A stretch of DNA of 64,000 bases. It comes from Octopus vulgaris. Lineage: Eukaryota. The notes under the pieces were generated by a model that did not search any database, was not told the DNA's origin, and saw only the letters and a program-made list of their open reading frames with translations. The stretch's first letter is position 1. Every line of letters starts with the position of its first letter. Location: NCBI GenBank assembly GCA_951406725.2, contig OX597823.1, positions 1,736,001 to 1,800,000 on the forward strand, written 5' to 3'. Below, piece after piece: positions 11,090 through 55,999 of the stretch. The translations under genes and the position numbers were made by a program.

Positions 11090-12581
11090 CAGAAAGAGAG
11101 GAAAAAAGAAAGGAAGAAAGAAAGAAAGAATGAAAGAAAGAAGGAAAGAATGAAAGAAAGAAAGAATGAAAGAAAGAAAGATAGAAAGAAAGAACGAACG
11201 AAAGAAAGAACGAAAGAAAGAATCAGAGAAAGAAAGAAAGAATGAAAGAATGAAAGAAAGAACAAAAGAAAAAAAGAAAGAAAGAAAGAAAGAAAGAATC
11301 AAAGACGGAAGAAAGAATCAAAGAAAGACAAAATGAGAGAACGAAAGAAAGAATGAAAGAAAGAAAGAAGAAAAGAAACAAACAAACAAACAAAGAGTGA
11401 AAGAAAGAAAGAACAAAAGAAAGAATGAAAGAACGAAAGAAAGAATGAAAGAAAGAAAGAAAGAAAGAAAGAATGAATGAAAGACAGAAAGAAAGATAGA
11501 AAGAAAGAAAGAAAGAATGAAAGGACGAAAGTAAGAATAAAAGAAAGAAAGAAAGATAGAAAGAAAGAAAGAAAGAAAGAAAGAAGCAAAGAAAGAAAGA
11601 AGAAAAGAACGAGAGAAAGAATGAATGATGGAAAGAAAGAAGAAAAGAACGAGAGAAAAAATGAATGATGGAAAGAAAGAAGAAAAGAACGAGAGAAAGA
11701 ATGAAAGAACGAAAGAAAGAAAGAAAGTAACAACGAAAGAAAGAAAGAATGAAAGAAAGTAACAACGAAAGAAAGAATGAAAGAATGAAAGAAAGAAAGA
11801 AAGAAAGAAAGTAAGAAAGAAAATACGAAAGAAAGAAAGAAACAAAGAAAATAAGAAAGAATGAAAGTAAGAATGAAAGAAAGAAAGAAAGTATGAAAGA
11901 AAGAATGAAAGAACGAAAGAAAGAATGAAAGAGAGAAAAAATGAAAGAGAGAAAGAATGAAAGTATGAAAGAAAGAATGAAAGAACGAAAGAAAGAAAGA
12001 AAGAAAGAAAGAAAAGAACAAGAAAAAGTAAGAAAGAAAGAAAGAAAGAAAGAAGAAAAGAACGAGAGAAAGAATGAAAGAGAGAAAGAAAGAAAGAACG
12101 CAAGAACAAAAGAAAGAATGAAAGAGTGAATGAAAGAAAGAGTGAAAGAAAGAAAGAACAAAAGGAAAGAATGAAAGAATGAAAGAACGAAAGAGAGAAT
12201 GAAAGAAAGAAAGAATGAATGAATGAATGAAAGAAAGACAAAAGAAAAAAGTAAAGAACGAGAGAAAGAAAGAAAGAAAGAAAGAAAGTAACAACGAAAG
12301 AAAGAATGAACGAAAGAAAGTAACAACGAAAGAAAGAATGAAAGAATGAAAGAAAGAATGAAAGAAAGAAAGAAAGTTTGAAAGAAAGAATGAAAGAACG
12401 AAAGAAAGAATGAAAGAGAGAAAGTATGGAAGAAAGAATGAAAGAAAGAAAGAAAGAAAGAAAGAAAAAACGAAAGAACAAAAGAAAGTATGAAAGAAAG
12501 AATGAAAGAACGAAAGAAAGACTGAAAGAAAGAAAGAAAGAAAGAAAAAACGAAAGAGAAAAAGAAAGAAAGAATGAATGA

Positions 12582-12616
<35 letters not shown>

Positions 12617-12741
12617 TATGAAAGAAAGAATGAAAGAACAAAAGAAAGTATGAAAGAAAGAATGAAAGAACGAAAGAAAGAATAAAAGAAAGAATGAAAG
12701 AAAGAAAAAACGAAAGAGAAAAAGAAAGAAAGAATGAATGA

Positions 12742-12772
<31 letters not shown>

Positions 12773-15071
12773 TATGAAAGAAAGAATGAAAGAAAGAATG
12801 AAAGAAAGAAAGAAAGAAAGAAGAAAGAATGAGAGAAAGAAAGAAAGAAAGTATGAAAGAAAGAATGAAAGAAAGAAAGAAAGTATGAAAGAAAGAATGA
12901 AAGAACGAAAGAAAGAATGAAAGAAAGTAAGAAAGAAAGAAGGAAAGAAAGAAAGAAAGAACGAAGCAAAGAAAATAAGAAAAAAAGAAAGAAAGAATGA
13001 AAGAAAGAATGAAAGAAAGAAAGAAAGTATGAAAGAAAGAATGAAAGAATGAAAGAAAGAATGAAAGAGAGAAAGTATGGAAGAAAGAATGAAAGAACAA
13101 GAAAAAGTAAGAAAGAAAGAAAGAAAGAAAGAAAGAAGGAAGAAAAGAATGAAAGAAAGAAAGAAAGTATGAAAGAAAGAATGAAAGAACAAACGAAAGT
13201 ATGAAAGAAAGAAAGAATGAACGAAAGAAAGACTTAAAGAAAGAAACAAAGAAAGAAAGAAGAAGAGAAAGAACGAAAGAAAGAAAGTATGAAACAAAGA
13301 ATGAAAGAACGAAAGAAAGAATGAAAGAAAGAATGAAAGAATGAAAGAAAGTATGAAAGAAAGAATGAAAGAACAAAAGAAAGTATGAAAGAAAGAATAA
13401 AAGAACGAAAGAAAGAATGAAAGAAAGAAAGAAAGAAAGAAAGAAAGAATGAAAGAAAGAAAGAAAGAAAGAAAGAAAAAATGAAAGTAAGAATAAAGGA
13501 AAGAATAAAAGAAAGAAAAAACGAAAGAGAGAAAGAAAGAAAGAATGAATGAAAGAAGGAAAGAAAGAAAGAAAGAAAGAACCAAAGAATGAATGAAAGA
13601 AAGAAAGAAAGAATGAAAGAAAGAATGAAAGAAAGAAAGAAAGAAAGAAAGAAGAAAGAACGAGAGAAAGAAAGACAGAAGAAGGAAAGAAAGAAAGAAA
13701 GAAAGAAACTGTGACAGAAAGAATGAAAGAAAGAAAGAAAGAAAGAAAGAAGAAAAGAACGAGAGAAAGAGAGAAAGACAGAAGAAAGAAAGAAAGAATG
13801 AAAGAAAGTATGAAAGAAAGAACGAAAGAAAGAAAGAAAGTATGAAAGAAAGAATGAAAGAACGAAAGAATGAATGAAAGAAAGAAATTATGAAAGAAAG
13901 AATGAAGGAAGAAAAGAAAGTATGAAAGAAAGAATGAAAGAATGAAAGAAAGACTGAAAGACAGAAAGAAAGAATGAAAGACAGAAAGAAAGTCAGAAAG
14001 AAAAAAGAAAAAACGAAAGAAAGAATAAGAGAAAGAATGAAAGAAAGAAAGAACGAAAGAGAGAAAGAAAGCAAGAAAGAAAGAATGAATGAAATAAAGA
14101 AAGAAAGAAGAAAAGAACGAGAGAAAGAAAGAATGAAAGAAAGAATGAAAGAATGAAAGAAACAAAGAAACAAAGAAGAAAAGAACGAGAGGAAGAAAGA
14201 AAGAAGAAAAGAACGAACGAAAGAAAGAAAGAAAGAAAGAATGAAAAACAGAAAGAAAGAAAGAAAGAATTAATGAATGAATAAATGAATGAAAGAAAAA
14301 TGAATGAAGAAAAAAACAGAGAAAGAAAGAATGAATGAAAGAAAGAAAGAAAGACAGAAAGAAAAAAAGAAAGAAAGAAGAAAAAAAGAAAGAAAGTATG
14401 AAAGAAAGAAAGAATGAAAGAACGAAAGAATGAATGAAAGACAGAAAGAAAGAAAGAAGAAAAGAACGAGAGAAAGAATGAAAGATAGAAAGAAAGAAGA
14501 AAAGAACGAGCGAAAGAATGAAAGATAGAAAGAAAGAAAGAATGAAAGAAAGAATGAAGGAAAGAAAGAACTAAAGAAGGAATGAAAGAATGAAAGAACG
14601 AAAGAAACAATGAAAAAACAGAAAGAAAGAAAGAACGAAAGAGAGAAAGAAAGAAAGAAAGAATGGAAGAAAGAAAGAAAGGAAGAAGAAAAGAACGAGA
14701 GAAAGAAAGAATGAAAGAGAGAAAGAAAGAAAAAACTAAAATATGAATGAAAAAACGAAAGAAATAATGAAAGACAGAATGAAAGAACGAAAGAAAGAAA
14801 GAAAGAAGAAAGAAAGTATGAAAGAAAGAATGAAATAAAGAAGGAAAAGAAAGAAGGAATGAAAGAAAGACAGAAGAAAAGAACGAGAGACAGAAAGAAA
14901 GACAGAAGAATGACAGAAAGATAGAAAGTATGAAAGAAAGAAAAAAGAAAGAAGAAAAGAACGAGAGAAAGAAAGAACGAAAGTATGAAAAAAGAAAGAA
15001 AAATAGATCAAGAAAAAGTAAGCAAGAAACAAAGAAACAAAGAAAGAAAGAAAGAAGAAAAGAACGAACGA

Positions 15072-15123
<52 letters not shown>

Positions 15124-16604
15124 AAGACAGACAGAAAGAAAGAAAGAAACAATGAAAGAATGAAAAAAAGAAAGAAAGAAAGAAAGAAAGAAAGCGTGAA
15201 AGAAAGAATGAAAGAACGAAAGAAACAACGAAATAAAGAAAAGAACAAGAAAAAGTAAGAAAGAAAGAAAGAAAGAAGAAAAGAACGAACGAAAGAAAGA
15301 AAGAAAGCGAGAAAGAACGAAAGAAAGAATGAAAGAAAGAAAGAAAGAAAGAAAGTGTGAAAGAAATAATGAAAGAACGAAAGAATGAATGAAAGAAAGA
15401 ATGAAAGAAAGACAGAAAGTATGAAAGAAAGAATGAAGGAAGAAAAGAAAGTATGAAAGAATGAATGAAAGAACGAAAGAAAGAATGAAAGACAGAAAGA
15501 AAGTAAGAAAGAAAAAAGAAAAAACGGAAGAAAGAACAAGAGAAAGAATGAAAGAACGAAAGAACGAAAGATAGAAAGAAAACAAGAAAGAAAGAATGAA
15601 TGAAATAAAGAAAGAAAGAAGAAAAGAACGAGAGAAAGAAAGAATGAAAGAAACAAAGAAACAAAGAAACAAAGAAGAAAAGAACGAGAGAAAGACAGAA
15701 GGAAGAAAAGAACGAACGAAAGAAAGAAAGGAAGAATGAAAGACAGAAAGAAAGAAAGAAAGAATTATTGAATGAATGAATGAATGAATGAATGAAAGAA
15801 AATGAATGAAAGAAAGAATGAAAGAAAGACAGAAAGAAAGAAAGAAAGAAAGTATGAAAGAAAAAAGAATGAAAGAACGAAAGAAGGAATGAAAGACAGA
15901 AAGAAAGAAAGAAAGAAGAAAAGATCGAGCGAAAGAATGAAAGATAGAAAAAAAGAAAGAATGAAAGAAAGAATGAAGGAAAGAAAGAACAAAATATGGA
16001 ATGAAAGAAAGAAAGATCGAAAGAAAGAATGAAAAAACAGAAAGAAAAAAAGAAAGAAAGAAAGAAAGAAAAAAGAAAAAACGAAAGAAAGAATAAAAGA
16101 AAGAATGAAAGAAAGAAAGAACGAAAGAGAGAAAGAAAGAAAAAAAGAATGGAAGAAAGAAAGAAAGGAAGAAGAAAAGAACGAGAGAAAGAAAGAATGA
16201 AAGAGAGAAAGAAAGAAAAAACCAAAGAATGAATGAAAAAACGAAAGAAATAATGAAAGAAAGAAAGAAAGAAAGAAAGAAGAAATAAGTATGAAAGAAA
16301 GAATGAAAGAAAGAATGAAAGTATGAAGGAATGAAAGAAAGACAGAAGAAAAGAACGATAGAAAGAAAGAAAGACAGAAGAATGACAGAAAGATAGAAAG
16401 TATGAACGAAAGAAAAAAGAAAGAAGAAAAGAACGAGAGAAAGAAAGAATGAAAGTATGAAAAAAGAAAGAAGAATAGATCATGAAAAATTAAGCAAGAA
16501 AAAAAGGAACAAAGAAAGAAAGAAAGAAAGAAGAAAAGAACGAACGAAAGAAAGAAAGAATGAAAGAAAGAAAGAAGGAAAGAAAGAAAGAAAGAAAGAC
16601 AGAC

Positions 16605-16643
<39 letters not shown>

Positions 16644-17333
16644 ATGAAAGTAAGAAATAAAGAAAGAATGAATGAATGATTGAATGAAAGAAAGAAAAAG
16701 GAATGAAGAAAAAACAAGAGAAAGAAAGAACGATAGAATGAAAGGAAGAAGGAATGAAAGAAATAAAGAAAGAAAGACGGAAAGAAAGAAAGAAAGAAAG
16801 AAAGGAAGAAAGAAAGAAAAAAAGGAGAAAAGAAAGAAAGATAGAAAGAAGGAAAGAAAGAAAGCAAGAAGGAAAGAAAGAATAAAAGAACGAAAGAAAG
16901 AATGAAAGACAGAAAGATATAAAGAAGAAAAGAACGAGAGAAAGATTGAAAGATAGAAACAAAGAAAGAATGAGAGAGAGAATGAAAAAAGAATGAAATA
17001 TAGAAAGAACAAAAGAAACAATGAAAGTAAGAAAGAAAGAATGAATGAATGAATGAAAGAGAAAAAAGGAAAAACAAAAGAATGAGAGAAAGAAAGAAAA
17101 AACGAAAGTAAGAACGAAAAAAAGAATAAAAGAATGAAAGAAAGAAAAAAGAAAGGAAGAAGAATGAAAGAACAAAAGAAAGAATGACAGAAAGAAAGAA
17201 AGAAAGAAAGAAAGAAAGTATGAAAGAAAAAAATGAAAGAAAGAAAGAAAGTATGAAAGAAAGAATGAAAGAACGAAAGAAAGAATGAAAGAATGAAAGA
17301 AAGAAAGAAAGAAAGAAAAGAACAAGGAAAAGT

Positions 17334-17365
<32 letters not shown>

Positions 17366-18253
17366 AAAGAAAGAAAGAAAGAAAGAAAGCGAGAAAGAAC
17401 GAAAGAAAGAATGAAAGAAAGAAAGAGAGTAAGAAAAAAGAAAGAACGAAAGAAAGAAAGAAAGAAAGTATGAAAGAAAGAAGGAAAGAAAGAAAGAAAG
17501 AATGAAAGAAAGAAAGAAAGTATGAAAGAAAGAATGAAAGAAAGAAACAATGAAAGACAGAAAGAATAAAAGAAAGAAAGAAAAAAGAAAAAACGAATGA
17601 AAGAATAAAAGAAAGAATGAAAGAGAGAAAGAACGAACGATAGAAAGAAAGAAAGCAAGAACGAAAGAAAGAAAAAAAGAAAGAAGAAAAGAACGAGAGA
17701 AAGAAAGAATGGAAGAAAGAAAGAAAGAAAGAACCAAAGAATGAATGATCGAACGAAAGAAAGAATGAAAGAAAGAAAGGAAGAAAGAAAGAAAGAAGGA
17801 AAGAAGAAAAGAAGGAAAAAAGAATGAAAGAAAGAAAGAAAGAAGGAAAGAAGAAAAGAACGAAAAAAAGAAAGAAAGTCCGAAGAAAGAAAGAAAGAAA
17901 GAAAGAAAGTATGAAAGAAAGAAAAAGAAAGAAGAAAAGATCAAGAAAAAATAAGCAAGAAAGAAAGGAACAAAGAAAGAAAGAAGGAAAGACAGAAATA
18001 AAGAAAGAAAGAAGAAAACGAAGAAATAAAGTATGAAAGAAAGAAAGAATGAAAGAACGAAAGAAAGAATGAAAGACAGAAAGAAAGAAAGAAGAAATGA
18101 ACGAGAGAAAGAATGAAAGATAGAAAGAAAGAAGAAAAGTACGAGCGAAAGAATGAAAGATAGAAAGAAAGAAAGAATGAAAGAAAGCATGAAAGAAAGA
18201 AAGAACAAAAGAAAGAATGAAAGAATGAAAAACGAAAGAAAGAATGAAAAGAC

Positions 18254-18284
<31 letters not shown>

Positions 18285-18462
18285 AAAAAAAAGAAAAAAC
18301 GAAAGAAAGAATAAAAGAAAGAATGAAAGAAAGATAGAACGAAAGAGAGAAAGAAAGAAAGAAAGAATGAAAGAAAGGAAGAAGAAAAGAACGAGAGAAA
18401 GAATGAATGAAAGAACGAAAGAAAGAAAGAAAGTATGAAAGAAAGAATGAAAGATAGAATGA

Positions 18463-18506
<44 letters not shown>

Positions 18507-19194
18507 AAAAAGAAGAAAAGAACGAGAGAAAGAAAGAAAGACAGAAGAATGACAGAAAGAAAGAAAGAAAGTATGAAAGAAAGAATGAAAGAAAGAAAAA
18601 AGAAAGAAGAAAAGATCAAGAAAAAGTAAGAAAGAAAGAAGAAAAGAACGAACGAAAGAAAGAAAGAAAGACTGAAAGAAAGAATGAAAGACAGAAAGGC
18701 AGAGAGAAAGAATGAAAGAAAGAAAGAATGAATGAATGAATGAATGAATGAATGAAAGAAAGAAAAAGGAATGAAGAAAAAACAAGAGAAAGAAAGAACG
18801 ATAGAAAGAAAGAAAGAATGAATGAAAGAAAGAAAGAAAGACAGAAAGAAAGAAAGAAAGAAGAAAAGGAAGAAAGATAGAAAGAATGAAAGAAAGAAAG
18901 AAGAAAGAAAGTAAGAAAGAAAGAAAGAAGGTATGAAAAAAGAAAGAATGAAAGAACGAAAGAAAGAATGAAAGAGAGAAAGAACAAAAGAAAGAATGAA
19001 AGAATGAAATAACGAAAGAAAAATGAAAGAAAGAATGAAAGAATGAATGAATAAATGAATGAAAGAAGGAAAAAGGAAAAAAAAGAACGAGAGAAAGAAA
19101 GAAAGAACGAAAGTAAGAACGAAAAAAGAATGAAAGAATGAAAGAAAGAAAGAAAGAAAGGAAGAAGGAATGAAAGAGCAAAAGAAAGAATGAC

Positions 19195-19245
<51 letters not shown>

Positions 19246-19419
19246 AGAAAGAAAGAAAGAAAGAAAGTAAGAAAGAAAAAAGTAAGAAAGAAAGATAGAA
19301 AGAAAGAAAGAAAGAACGAAAGAAAGAAAGATAGAACGAAAGAATGAAAGAATGAAAGAAAGAAAGAAAGAAAGAAAGAAAGGAAATATGAAAGAAAGAA
19401 TAAAAGAAAGTAAGAATGA

Positions 19420-19455
<36 letters not shown>

Positions 19456-19680
19456 CAGAAAGAAAGAAAGAAGGAATGAATGAACGAAAGAAAGAATAAA
19501 AGAAAGAAAGAATGAAAGAGAAAGAAAGAAAGTAGAAAAGAACGAGAGAAAGTAAGAAAGAAAGAAAGAATAAGAATGGAAGAAAGGAAGAAGAAAGAAA
19601 GAAACAAGGAAAGAATGAAGAAAGGCAGAAGGAAAGAGAAATGAAAAAAAGAACAAAGAGGGGAGAAAGGATGGAATCAA
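11090..19680. repeat. About 8.6-kb degenerate (GAAA)n purine-strand satellite
   Basis: Continuous GAAA/GAAT/GAAC variants; it explains the 400-1280 aa F/L/S pseudo-ORFs. Confidence 0.97.
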
Positions 19681-20018
19681 AGAAACCCGCAAAATCGGAA
19701 ATGAAAGGAATAAGTTGTATCTGCCAACCGACTTCTTTATTTTTCGAAATGTGACGTTTTTAAAGAAATCCGTTGTTGGAGATTTGTTTAGTTTCAGTAG
19801 TGGCGGTGGTGGTGGTGGTGGGGATGATGGTGGGGAGGAGTGATTGGTTCTGTCGTCGTCGAGCTTTAGCTGCATCTCTACCACTAATGCTCTTACCATC
19901 GCTGCTCTAGACTGGCCACTGCCAACTGTTGTCATTCACAGAAGCTGTTTACCATTTGTTGCTACCATTTTTTCTGATTCTGTTACTACATCGACACCAC
20001 CACAACCACCACTACTAT

Positions 20019-41537: not shown

Positions 41538-41658
41538 ATAATAATAATATCTGAGTAAGTATAAAGATCTTGAAATAGAAATTGGCAAAATGTGGAACCT
41601 CAAGTTTGAAACAATACTTGTTGTCATAGGAATGATTGGAAATGGGGTTAATTGCTAT

Positions 41659-43211
41659 TGTAGCAAGCAAGTTGTAAACGGCCGTAATATGACGTGATGG
41701 TCACGTTGCCCGAACAAGTATAATTCTTAGTTTCCGATTGGTTAAAATTATTGCCCATATTTGAATTCTAAACTTTCGTCAAAGAGAAATCTTTCACGAA
41801 ATACGTTTCTTAGTATTCAGGTCTGAGTAGTTATAAAAACTCTGATTTTGGGGAAATTAATCTGTCCGTTGGTTGTCACTCATCTCCACGACACTTCTTT
41901 GAGATATTGGCTATTTTTATGCTATGTCTATAACTTAAATCCAACAAGACTTATTTGAATTGTTGTGTAAACTCGAGTAGTTTAGTATGAAAGAATTAGC
42001 TAGTATAAATTTTATGTCATAATTCTCTACGACAAATTTCTTTGACTTCTAAATGTACTGTAAATATTAAATGCATGTAACTAAACTAATGTAGTAAATA
42101 TTTTCTCTGCCTTCACTTTTTTCAATCTGTTAATGAAATTTATTTCTGCAATTATGAAACTATGTGTTCTTTTTATATCGGTTAAAAGAACACGAATTTA
42201 TTTATCTTCAACATACATGCACGTTCAATATGTCCGTTAAGTGTCATGACATATATATTTCTCTTCGGCGTTTATGTAACTTGAGTTAGGATCTATGTAT
42301 AGTGATAATACTTATAATTAAGTTATAAGTGGCGGGTTTATCAATATAGTTTCTCACTCAGGAAATAAAATATATTTATTATCTATTCCAAGTCGAAACC
42401 ACATAAATAAGATAAAATATACCCTTACAAAAGTGGTATCCAGTTACCGTTATAAAAGTGGTGACGCTTGTGAAAAATATACAAAATTTCAAATAGAAAA
42501 TAGACGACAGTTTCATTACACAAAATTTTATTAACGGAAATATTTTATATTAAAAGTTGAAGGGAAAAAAAAGAAATAAACAATAATAGTTGTAAGAAGT
42601 TTTAACTGCACTTTCAAGCAAACTAGATTTATACTTCATAGTTGTTGAAAGTATTATTTCACCAAGTGAAAAATTTTTTTTTTTTTAAATTTTAATAAAT
42701 TTGAATGGAAGAAAATATTAAAGAGTTTGAAATGTCTTATTTCGATAAAGGATATAAGCAAGCTTCTACGACAGTTTTATCTCCTGCTTGGATGGGAGAT
42801 GCCATTATCTGGTTTGCTCAATTAGAAGCAAGTTTTGCAGCAAACAGAATAACAACAGAGGCACAAAAATATAACATTGTCAAGTAACTTACCACCAGCT
42901 ATGAGCAATGAAATTAGGGACTTATTAATAGATCCTACCGAACGATTTTCCTATTCTTCCGTAAAGGAATGGATACCAAAAGAGGACTTCCAACTCCAAA
43001 CAAAAACAATTTGCTAAACTGTTCAATAACGAACAACTGGGCGACAGGAAACCTACTCGACTTCTTCGTAGAATGAAAGGTTTCTCTTTCCCGAAAGTTT
43101 AGAATTCAAATATGGGCAGTGATTTTAACCAATGGGAAACTAAAAATTACACTTGTTCGGACAACATGACCATCACGTCATATTACCGCCGTTTGCGACT
43201 TACTTGCTACA
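41659..43211. mobile_element. 1553-bp TGT...ACA element with 138-bp imperfect TIRs and a 4-bp TSD (CTAT)
   Basis: 41659-41796 is the approximate reverse complement of 43074-43211. CTAT is duplicated at 41655-41658 and 43212-43215. Confidence 0.9.
42705..43079 (+). pseudogene. Gypsy-type gag fragment
   Basis: Across two frameshifts it reads SPAWMGDAIIWFAQLEASF..RITTEAQKY..LPP....EIRDLL...EQLGDRKPTRLLRRMK. Confidence 0.8.
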
Positions 43212-43481
43212 CTATCTAGCTCAGATACCAGGAAATCCCAAAATGGCAGAAATTCAAAAAATATTGCTCGTGGGAACTGCACATATCTTACGTAAAGTAC
43301 TGTCTATGTAATCTCAAATTTTAATACAAACTCATAATAATTTTCTTAAACATTCACTAGAACAATACTATGTTCAAAACCAAATATATGACACCCTAGG
43401 CATAACACCAATATGAACTTCTAACTTGTCTCTGGATGAGACTTGGAGTCAACTTGTACAAATACAAAGTAAAAGTCAAAA

Positions 43482-43551
<70 letters not shown>

Positions 43552-43552
<1 letters not shown>

Positions 43553-44820
43553 GAGAAAGAAATGACAGAAAAATTGAAGGTGGAGTACTTGCGCAGACTA
43601 CTGAGACTGATCCTTAAGTCGAAATTAAACGACCGAAATAAGATTGAACCTGGGCGGTTTCACTCCTCAGATATGGAGCAGGAGTAATCGCATGGACAGT
43701 AGAAGAACTAAACAGCTTAGACAGAAAGACAAGGAAGTTGCTAACTAGATATGGAATACTCCACCCAAAAGGTGACACAGACAGACTGCATGTACCAAGA
43801 AAAAGAGGGGGAAGAGGGCTGATTGGATGCGAACACAGCATTAGAGCAGAAGAAAACAACATAGCACGGTATCTAGAAAATGCCACAGAACCGCTATTAT
43901 TGGAAGTAGGAAGGTCAGGTTTGTGTAGGATAAAAGATAGCAAAGATAAAGTACTATACAAGAAATTGAAAACGAATGAAACTGAAAATAGGTGGGTAAA
44001 GAAAAGAATGCATGGTCAATTTCATAGGGATGTTGAAGATAAGACAGACAGAGAAAAAAGATGGTTGTGGATGACTAAAATGGATTTAAAACCGGAAACG
44101 GAGGCTCTAATCTGTGCTGCCCAAGAGCAAGCACTAAAAACAAACTACATAAAATACAGAATAGACAACACAGCAGAAAGTGATAAGTGCAGAATCTGTG
44201 GACAAACCGGTGAAGCCATATGGCGTATTAGCAGCCAATGTACGCCACAAACCCAGAAGGGATATAAGAGACACCACGACAATATAGCCAGGCTTTTCCA
44301 TTGGACACTTTGCAACAAGTATGGACTTGAAAGAGCAAAAAATTCGTACGACCACAAACCTGAAGGCATCTTTGAAAAATAGAAATGTAGAGATCCTATG
44401 GGATTTTATGATACAGTGTGACCATGAGATTGAGAATAGGAAACCGGACATAGTGTTAATTGAGAAAGAAAAGAAACTATGCTGGATCATAGATATTGCA
44501 TGCCCAGCTGACAACAAGGTATGCGATAAAGAAGAAAGAAAAGTCAAGAGATTTGACAGGTTAGCTTGGGAAGTTAAGCAGTTGTGGTCGATGAGAAAGG
44601 TAGCATTAGTACCAATAATTGTCGGAGCCCTGGGAACAGTGAGCAAAAATCACGTGAAGTATGTGGAACGAAAAGGGGCTGCAATACGGGTGGAGCACTT
44701 GCAGAAAACAGAACTGCTTGGAACCGCTCGAATACTCCGGAAGGTGCTCGAAAAATAAGAGGTGTTACCATAGTTCACTGGTAGTGAACAGCTGACACTG
44801 TAGTACATTTCCAGCGTTAG
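43552..44820 (+). mobile_element. Family A 5'-truncated copy in (TAA)n
   Basis: ORFs 43738-44382 and 44321-44758 (RKPDIVL, DIACP, LGTARILRK) are highly similar to 140-1410 on the minus strand. Confidence 0.93.
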
Positions 44821-55000: not shown

Positions 55001-55999
55001 GAATGATAAATGGCAAGAAAAACCTCTCTATGGCAAATACCCAAAGAGAGCGAATAATGCAGATGTTGATAAAACCCTGACCCATCAATGGCTAATGACC
55101 TCTGGCTTAAAATCTGAAACAGAAGGGTTTCTCATAGCAGCTCAAGATCAATGCCTACCAACAAGAAACCGTTCTGCACGCACTCGTGCAGTGTCCAACA
55201 ATTTCCGACCTGTGACCAACGTATTAAAGAACGGCAGTAGCCCAACATGTCGTGTATATCAACAACAAAATAAAACCATTGATCATGTTGTCTCCAAATG
55301 CAGTCTTCTAGCGCCTACAGAGTATCTCAACAGGCATGATAGAGCTGCACAATATATTCACTGGGTAATCTGCAAAAGCCTGGATTTTCCCCATGAAAAA
55401 AACTGGTGGGAACACAAACCACCTCCAGTGCTTGAAAATGACTACATCTCACTCCTCTGGAACTTCACCTTTCAAACTGACAGACAAATAGATTCAAATA
55501 GGCCAGACATCATATTGAAAGACTTCAAACAAAGAACATGCCTCCTCATTGAGATGACTGTCCCAATCGATATAAACGTATCTGTCAAGACCTACCATGA
55601 ACTGAGCAAATAAAGATCTTGAAATAGAAATCAGCAAAATGTGGAACCTGAAGACTAAAACAATACCTGTTGTCATAGGTGCCCAGGGAATGATAGCGAA
55701 AGGGGCTGATTGCTACCTAACTCAGATACCAGGAAACCCCAAAATGGCAGAAATTCAAAAAATAGTGCTCATGGGAACTGCTCATATCCTACGCAAAATA
55801 CTTTCTATGTAATCTCAAGTTTTAAAACAAACATACTTTTTTTTTTTATTGACATTCACTAGTACCACACTAAATACAAAACCAAATATATGGCACACTA
55901 GACATAACAACAACATGAACTTCCAACCTGTTGTCTCTTGAGGTCTCTGGTTGAGACTTGGAGCCAACTTGTACAAACATAAAGCAAAAGTCAAACATA

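Follow-up and report, generated by a model that had tools for sequence, protein, structure and literature searches.

A recurring Gypsy insert with two U3 ends in Octopus vulgaris, likely a copying error of a CsRn1-clade family

The insert and its host element

We analyzed a 64,000-nt stretch of contig OX597823.1 from the 2.8-Gb genome of Octopus vulgaris (the window, to which all positions refer unless a contig is given) and identified in it a two-U3 insert of 1,553 bp (41659-43211), enclosed by a 4-bp CTAT target-site duplication (TSD; 41655-41658 and 43212-43215, plus strand). The insert is bounded by arms of 138 bp each (41659-41796 and 43074-43211) that agree at 124/138 positions and are inverted, not direct, repeats, as an earlier note on this DNA had stated. 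Along the plus strand it comprises a complete 5' LTR of 796 bp (41659-42454; TGTAG...TTATA); a primer-binding site (PBS) with a short match to the 3' end of tRNA-Trp (42459-42466; longer matches in copies L122 and L133); a broken 5' fragment of gag that ends in TGAAAG (42705-43079); and, on the minus strand, an inverted copy of LTR bases 1-138 that forms a second U3 attachment end (43074-43211; ...CTACA). The AATAAA that the note had placed near 42364 is present (42364-42369, plus strand) and, judged by its sequence, is likely a polyadenylation signal. A U3 hairpin is predicted at 41762-41820 on the plus strand (computed fold z -3.05 in the window copy); its predicted top stem carries, on the 3' side, the arm breakpoint CTTTCA (41791-41796). 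With no right LTR, polypurine tract (PPT), or pol, the insert is predicted to have been dead on arrival.

The gag fragment matches Pfam DUF7041 (42705-42884, E 2.8e-6) and is 78-90% identical to 13 other full-length gag matches. The TGAAAG at its break is native gag sequence in 12 of the 14 other copies aligned there, which bears out the reading of a Gypsy gag fragment that breaks off at a microhomology with the right arm. Since solo LTRs with 4-bp TSDs end at TTATA, a motif that the two-LTR copies L133 and L121 also support, the window LTR ends at 42454 and not at the TACA at 42429, where the note had put it. It had also reported two PBS-like sites: the one at 42459 is indeed the PBS, and TGGTATCC at 42434 lies within U5 as a PBS-like relic.

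The insert interrupts the 3' end of a host non-LTR retrotransposon, whose left half (41551-41654, plus strand) aligns to an uninterrupted copy at 55602-55715 and whose right half (43216-43330, plus strand) aligns to it from 55713 onward. The two flanks thus rejoin into a single unbroken site near 55710, within a homologous element at about 55602-55830, in agreement with the clean, CTAT-duplicating insertion proposed earlier; the host reading frame stays open across the empty site, and an RVT_1 domain is found in a nearby homologous copy of the host element. Elsewhere in the window, a 1.3-kb repeat occurs twice in opposite orientation (140-1410 and 43548-44820, 92% identical), and all three minus-strand frames of 11223-19935 contain very long stop-free stretches, which probably reflect a low-complexity array.

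The gag/arm junction is bridged by contigs in all four public runs examined (three studies, three organism labels), a support that consists of assembled contigs and in which one run may come from the assembly's own sample. One contig of run X5 spans the right arm, TSD, and flank, so that the gag/arm and right junctions are both covered. Together with the recurrence described below, this confirms that the structure is real and not a one-off.

The parent family

An LTR of about 800 bp begins with the 138-bp terminus, and most matches to the terminus run on into that LTR. Solo copies are flanked by 4-bp TSDs and terminate in TTATA or TATAAAA, and in L133 and L121 direct LTRs surround gag-pol, so the check suggested earlier, whether the terminus heads direct-repeat LTRs of full Gypsy elements or forms a Ginger terminal inverted repeat (TIR), comes out for the LTR. 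Relatives of the window element encode a CHCC Gag, a DTG protease motif, and YIDD, followed by RNase H and integrase. The Gag signature (CX2HX9CX3C) is found in L127, L129, and L139 and is degenerate in L133, L123, and L126; the window gag breaks off upstream of its position. Direct LTRs around gag-PR-RT-RH-IN occur in the family members L133, L121, and L139, of which the window copy is a derivative without this arrangement. The family PBS matches a tRNA-Trp(CCA) gene (ARAGORN), with only the first 8 nt retained in the window copy, and the solo LTRs have TGT...ATA or TGT...AAA ends and 4-bp TSDs.

The published account of the CsRn1-like elements PwRn1 and AgCR, in the portion drawn on here, describes a tRNA-Trp PBS, a CHCC Gag, 4-bp TSDs, LTRs with TGT...ATA or TGT...AAA ends, and the domain order PR-RT-RH-IN (PMC2582038), all of which the window family shares. 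On these sequence hallmarks (PBS, Gag signature, LTR ends, TSD, and gene order) the parent family is assigned to the CsRn1 clade of Gypsy. The window copy differs from CsRn1 elements as described there in having an inverted U3 as its right end and no right LTR, and that portion of the PwRn1/AgCR account contains no description of two-U3 copies (PMC2582038). We further identified a sister family, about 68% identical to the window family.

Other features of these LTRs are recorded here in their own right. U5 ends are lengthened by tandem pieces made of an LTR end plus a PBS start (42420-42470 in the window; also L133, L051, and L169), and LTR length therefore differs between subfamilies. One window-family LTR (L353, G000:C1:102115100-102115900) ends in about 39 nt from the 3' end of tRNA-Trp, running far beyond the 18 nt at which copying of the tRNA usually stops, and looks like an inserted strong-stop strand. 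L167 (G000:C21:24304109) is a 100-bp mini-element with the TSD AACC, in which 60 bp come from U3 and 45 bp from U5. LTR groups sharing TSD and flank at G000:C2:151.8-152.7 Mb, C24:38.9-39.0 Mb, and C12:75.6-76.4 Mb are likely segmental duplications.

Recurrence and independence of two-U3 copies

We identified 15 independent two-U3 structures, nine in the window family (the window insert, L126, L127, L129, L134, L189, L014, L152, and L153) and six in the sister family (L281, L291, L293, L282, L283, and L289), so the single-copy outcome, which the earlier note had named as speaking against its reading, does not apply. The samples were best-40 match lists and exact patterns, which makes the rates rough; L189, L152, and L153 came from terminus pattern searches and L014 from the first search. 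L290 is left out as a duplicate of L289, and L295, L351, L023, L141, L165, L166, L180, and L190 are left out because an inverted piece is present and the second terminus is absent. The inverted U3 arm occurs in 5 of 15 close gag-bearing copies of the window family (the best 15 gag matches), namely the window insert, L126, L127, L129, and L134, and, among the sister-family gag copies examined, several of them in stretches that do not include both ends, in L282 only. That copy consists of an LTR, gag, and a 174-bp arm, with arms identical at 173/174 positions and the TSD CTAT, and L281, L291, and L293 are complete palindromes of about 300 bp. Both ends lie on host DNA in 13 of the 15 structures, with TSDs matching at 4/4 positions in nine, at 3/4 in two, and no TSD in two (L153 and L283). 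The duplicated sequences include CTAT, GTAC, GTAT, ACTT, ACTG, CAAC, and GGTG; the perfect TSD of L293 sits in an AT repeat. Among 182 pattern-matched U3 termini, pairs within 10 kb were facing in eight cases, direct in four, and back to back in none, and no U5/U5 product was found among 48 U5 termini, a number too small to establish a U3-only polarity. In the literature searched, mainly open-access and more recent papers, we came across no account of a two-U3 series of this kind.

Every gag or pol junction differs among the two-U3 copies. The best 40 of 200 candidates scored contained no further copy of the window junction, and it was absent from all 30 gag candidates scored; a pattern search for it stayed at background (57 matches versus 59 for the control), with no second copy among the 29 other loci of these matches that were compared by BLAST. 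The same gag/TIR junction at different TSDs, which the earlier note had proposed counting, is thus not seen. The only pair with a common junction, L289/L290, is explained by a segmental duplication (8.8 kb at 98.9%). Because no junction was seen to be amplified from a founder, there is no evidence of a cut-and-paste life, and among the two-U3 copies found none reaches the integrase gene and none was seen to move again. An intermediate between retrotransposon and DNA transposon, as suggested earlier, is therefore apt for the shape only and not for remobilization as DNA.

The arms carry their own record of origin. Both window arms share a variant that is otherwise absent from the U3 starts compared (2/89), as do both arms of L129 (2/89), although gene conversion between arms could also produce such private variants. 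The copy's own LTR ranks second or third of 93 matches to the arm in the window insert, L126, and L129, and 16th in L127. By these sequence comparisons both window arms derive from one source copy, which, with the terminus heading both solo and direct-repeat LTRs, upholds the first alternative of the note, in which the LTR's own U3 end, copied in inverted form, closes off a unit of 5' LTR and gag and provides the second of two U3 attachment sites.

The note's other alternative was a non-autonomous Ginger that captured a Gypsy fragment, to which we add an LTR-derived founder spread by cut-and-paste. In shape the insert fits this alternative: Ginger1 elements, in the portion of the account used here, have TIRs of 40-270 bp starting TGTNR and 4-bp TSDs (PMC2836005), and the window insert, with its TGTAG ends and 138-bp arms, falls within these dimensions; four sister-family mini-elements of about 300 bp even have one fold-back stem in common. 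The window insert nevertheless differs from Ginger1 as described there in having no transposase, no CCGG or CCGT duplication, and no amplified family (PMC2836005). The terminus continues into the LTR in nearly all copies examined, the two-U3 TSDs are neither CCGG nor CCGT, and the arms enclose LTR, gag, or pol pieces that end before integrase, with no integrase-like transposase between them. No autonomous partner with these TIRs was found among the termini examined, a subset of those in the genome, nor do we see the many founder-derived copies with one junction and different TSDs expected of a MITE-like family: every gag junction is unique, and the sole shared one is the segmental duplication. 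The mini-elements themselves differ in their crossover points along the one stem, and the arms of L281, which belongs to another subfamily, group with that subfamily (3/118 differences, versus 6-10 to others). A DNA transposon of either kind is thus highly improbable. These palindromic mini-elements or their remnants (L281, L291, L293, L295, and L351) all formed at a single imperfect stem, 17 bp long, in the U3 of the sister family.

Formation at the U3 hairpin and its meaning

The U3 hairpin is predicted in both families; in three further copies, with the sister family represented among them, z lies between -2.3 and -5.3. The arms of the window insert, L126, L127, and L129 end at LTR bases 138-142, in its top stem, and the fold-back points of L152 and the mini-elements lie on its lower stems. 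Overall, 9 of 15 arm breakpoints fall on the hairpin span (5/9 in the window family and 4/6 in the sister family; binomial 0.0014 and 0.0033, for a span picked after the data were seen and a uniform null), and short arms are favored by the 138-bp query and by the loss of long palindromes. Arms of 28-36, 160, and 555 bp rule out a common end at base 138, and an equation of base 138 with the U3/R border was dropped because of a TATA-like box near LTR base 175.

Native microhomology is found at the junctions of the window insert (6 nt), L126 (8 nt), and L127 (9 nt). The arm of L126, itself not a TSD-flanked two-U3 insertion, passes U3 base 1 into 11 nt, 10 of which agree with the reverse-complemented PPT; this indicates that its template was a plus strand with the PPT attached. 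The arm then re-enters gag 14 nt upstream of its exit point. Direct jumps from the same U3 region occur in L153, L285, and L286, and together with internal inversions in copies with normal ends they point to frequent template switching in both families. In L285 and L286 (G000:C20:31.07 Mb and C5:22.36 Mb, sister family) the left end is reduced to U3 1-139/140, which is fused to late pol with a full 3' LTR, and L286 also has an internal inversion. For L153, autointegration is disfavored: its U5 end is joined, near LTR base 555, to a sequence that resembles it in inverted orientation, which fits fold-back priming.

We consider it probable that synthesis of one plus strand stalled in gag, that this strand then primed on another plus strand at the U3 hairpin to give the insert, and that the family's integrase then inserted the product in one step via two U3 ends. 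The nascent strand ending in TGAAAG would pair with CTTTCA, U3 133-138 of a PPT-primed strong-stop strand, and each strand would then be extended with the other as template, giving a linear DNA with CA-3' at both ends, by which the integrase would insert it. The non-canonical normal right end (TA or AA) may let such U3/U3 molecules compete. These steps before insertion are read from old genomic copies rather than from cDNA; what the sequences show is the anatomy, TSD, family, and recurrence, the single arm source, the junction microhomology, and the PPT run-on of L126. Extra strong-stop strands occur in particles, and integrases accept two U3 ends in vitro. Parallels in the portions of published work used here are the relaxed specificity of Ty1 integrase, with paused intermediates that make joints (PMC2939329), and the strong-stop switching between genomes proposed for asymmetric HIV LTRs (PMC9278108). 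The filler in L129, the missing TSDs of L153 and L283, and the rank of 16th of 93 for the L127 arm speak against template switching.

The L129 junction, with a short filler and no native microhomology, is better suited to a second route, in which two cDNAs each give a U3 end to one integrase complex and the host resects the free ends and joins them where inverted microhomology allows, the U3 hairpin being the easiest site. Filler bases are typical of host end joining, and two-donor U3/U3 integration occurs in vitro. This route would yield the same final structure, TSD included, and the 28-36 bp arms of L014, L189, and L134 could correspond to an integrase-protected length. It leaves unexplained the run of L126 into the PPT and its return to gag, as well as the direct jumps that start in that part of U3 and the inversions in normal-ended copies, and we regard it as rather unlikely.

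Only the U3 end might be inserted by integrase, with a host polymerase extending the failed right end by copying its own U3 before integrase-free joining. A weak U5 end would fit, the TSD-less L153 and L283 may be explained, and there is a precedent in HIV proviruses with one blocked end, where, in the part of the study used here, the mis-joined right end is truncated and extended via microhomology by viral DNA copied in either orientation (PMC5041404). The host-joined second end of those proviruses, however, mostly comes with large duplications or deletions (PMC5041404), whereas the window insert has two exact U3 attachment ends and a normal TSD, and in 9 of 13 copies, the window insert among them, U3 base 1 is the precise end and a 4-bp TSD is present. 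The chance of such an origin is slight overall, and for the window copy it is unlikely.

Template switching at the hairpin thus remains our preferred reading, in which a known Gypsy clade repeatedly gives rise to by-products like the window insert, likely copying errors that the element's own integrase still inserted. Two-U3 copies and 300-bp palindromes would pass by shape as Ginger or MITE families, a warning for annotation. Bao and colleagues, in the portion of their account used here, proposed that Ginger1 TIRs came from two separately inserted LTRs, called the chain of events unclear, and left open how LTR retrotransposons gain terminal inverted repeats (PMC2836005); in contrast to that proposal, both inverted ends here come from one source copy and lie under one TSD. 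We venture, as a doubtful extension, that CsRn1-type elements, whose U3 end is strong and whose U5 end is weak, might routinely make TIR-bounded, TSD-making elements in one step at the U3 hairpin; that a switch after the integrase would yield a Ginger1-like transposon; and that the 300-bp palindromes might be MITE precursors, perhaps occasionally remobilized by integrase. The series itself is a natural one, in which inverted attachment ends of Ginger1-like length arise repeatedly, each time from one source copy and under a single TSD, at a defined hairpin. Germ-line integration by two U3 ends thus seems acceptable to the integrase, and the series shows a one-step route to such ends, making TIR formation a countable event.
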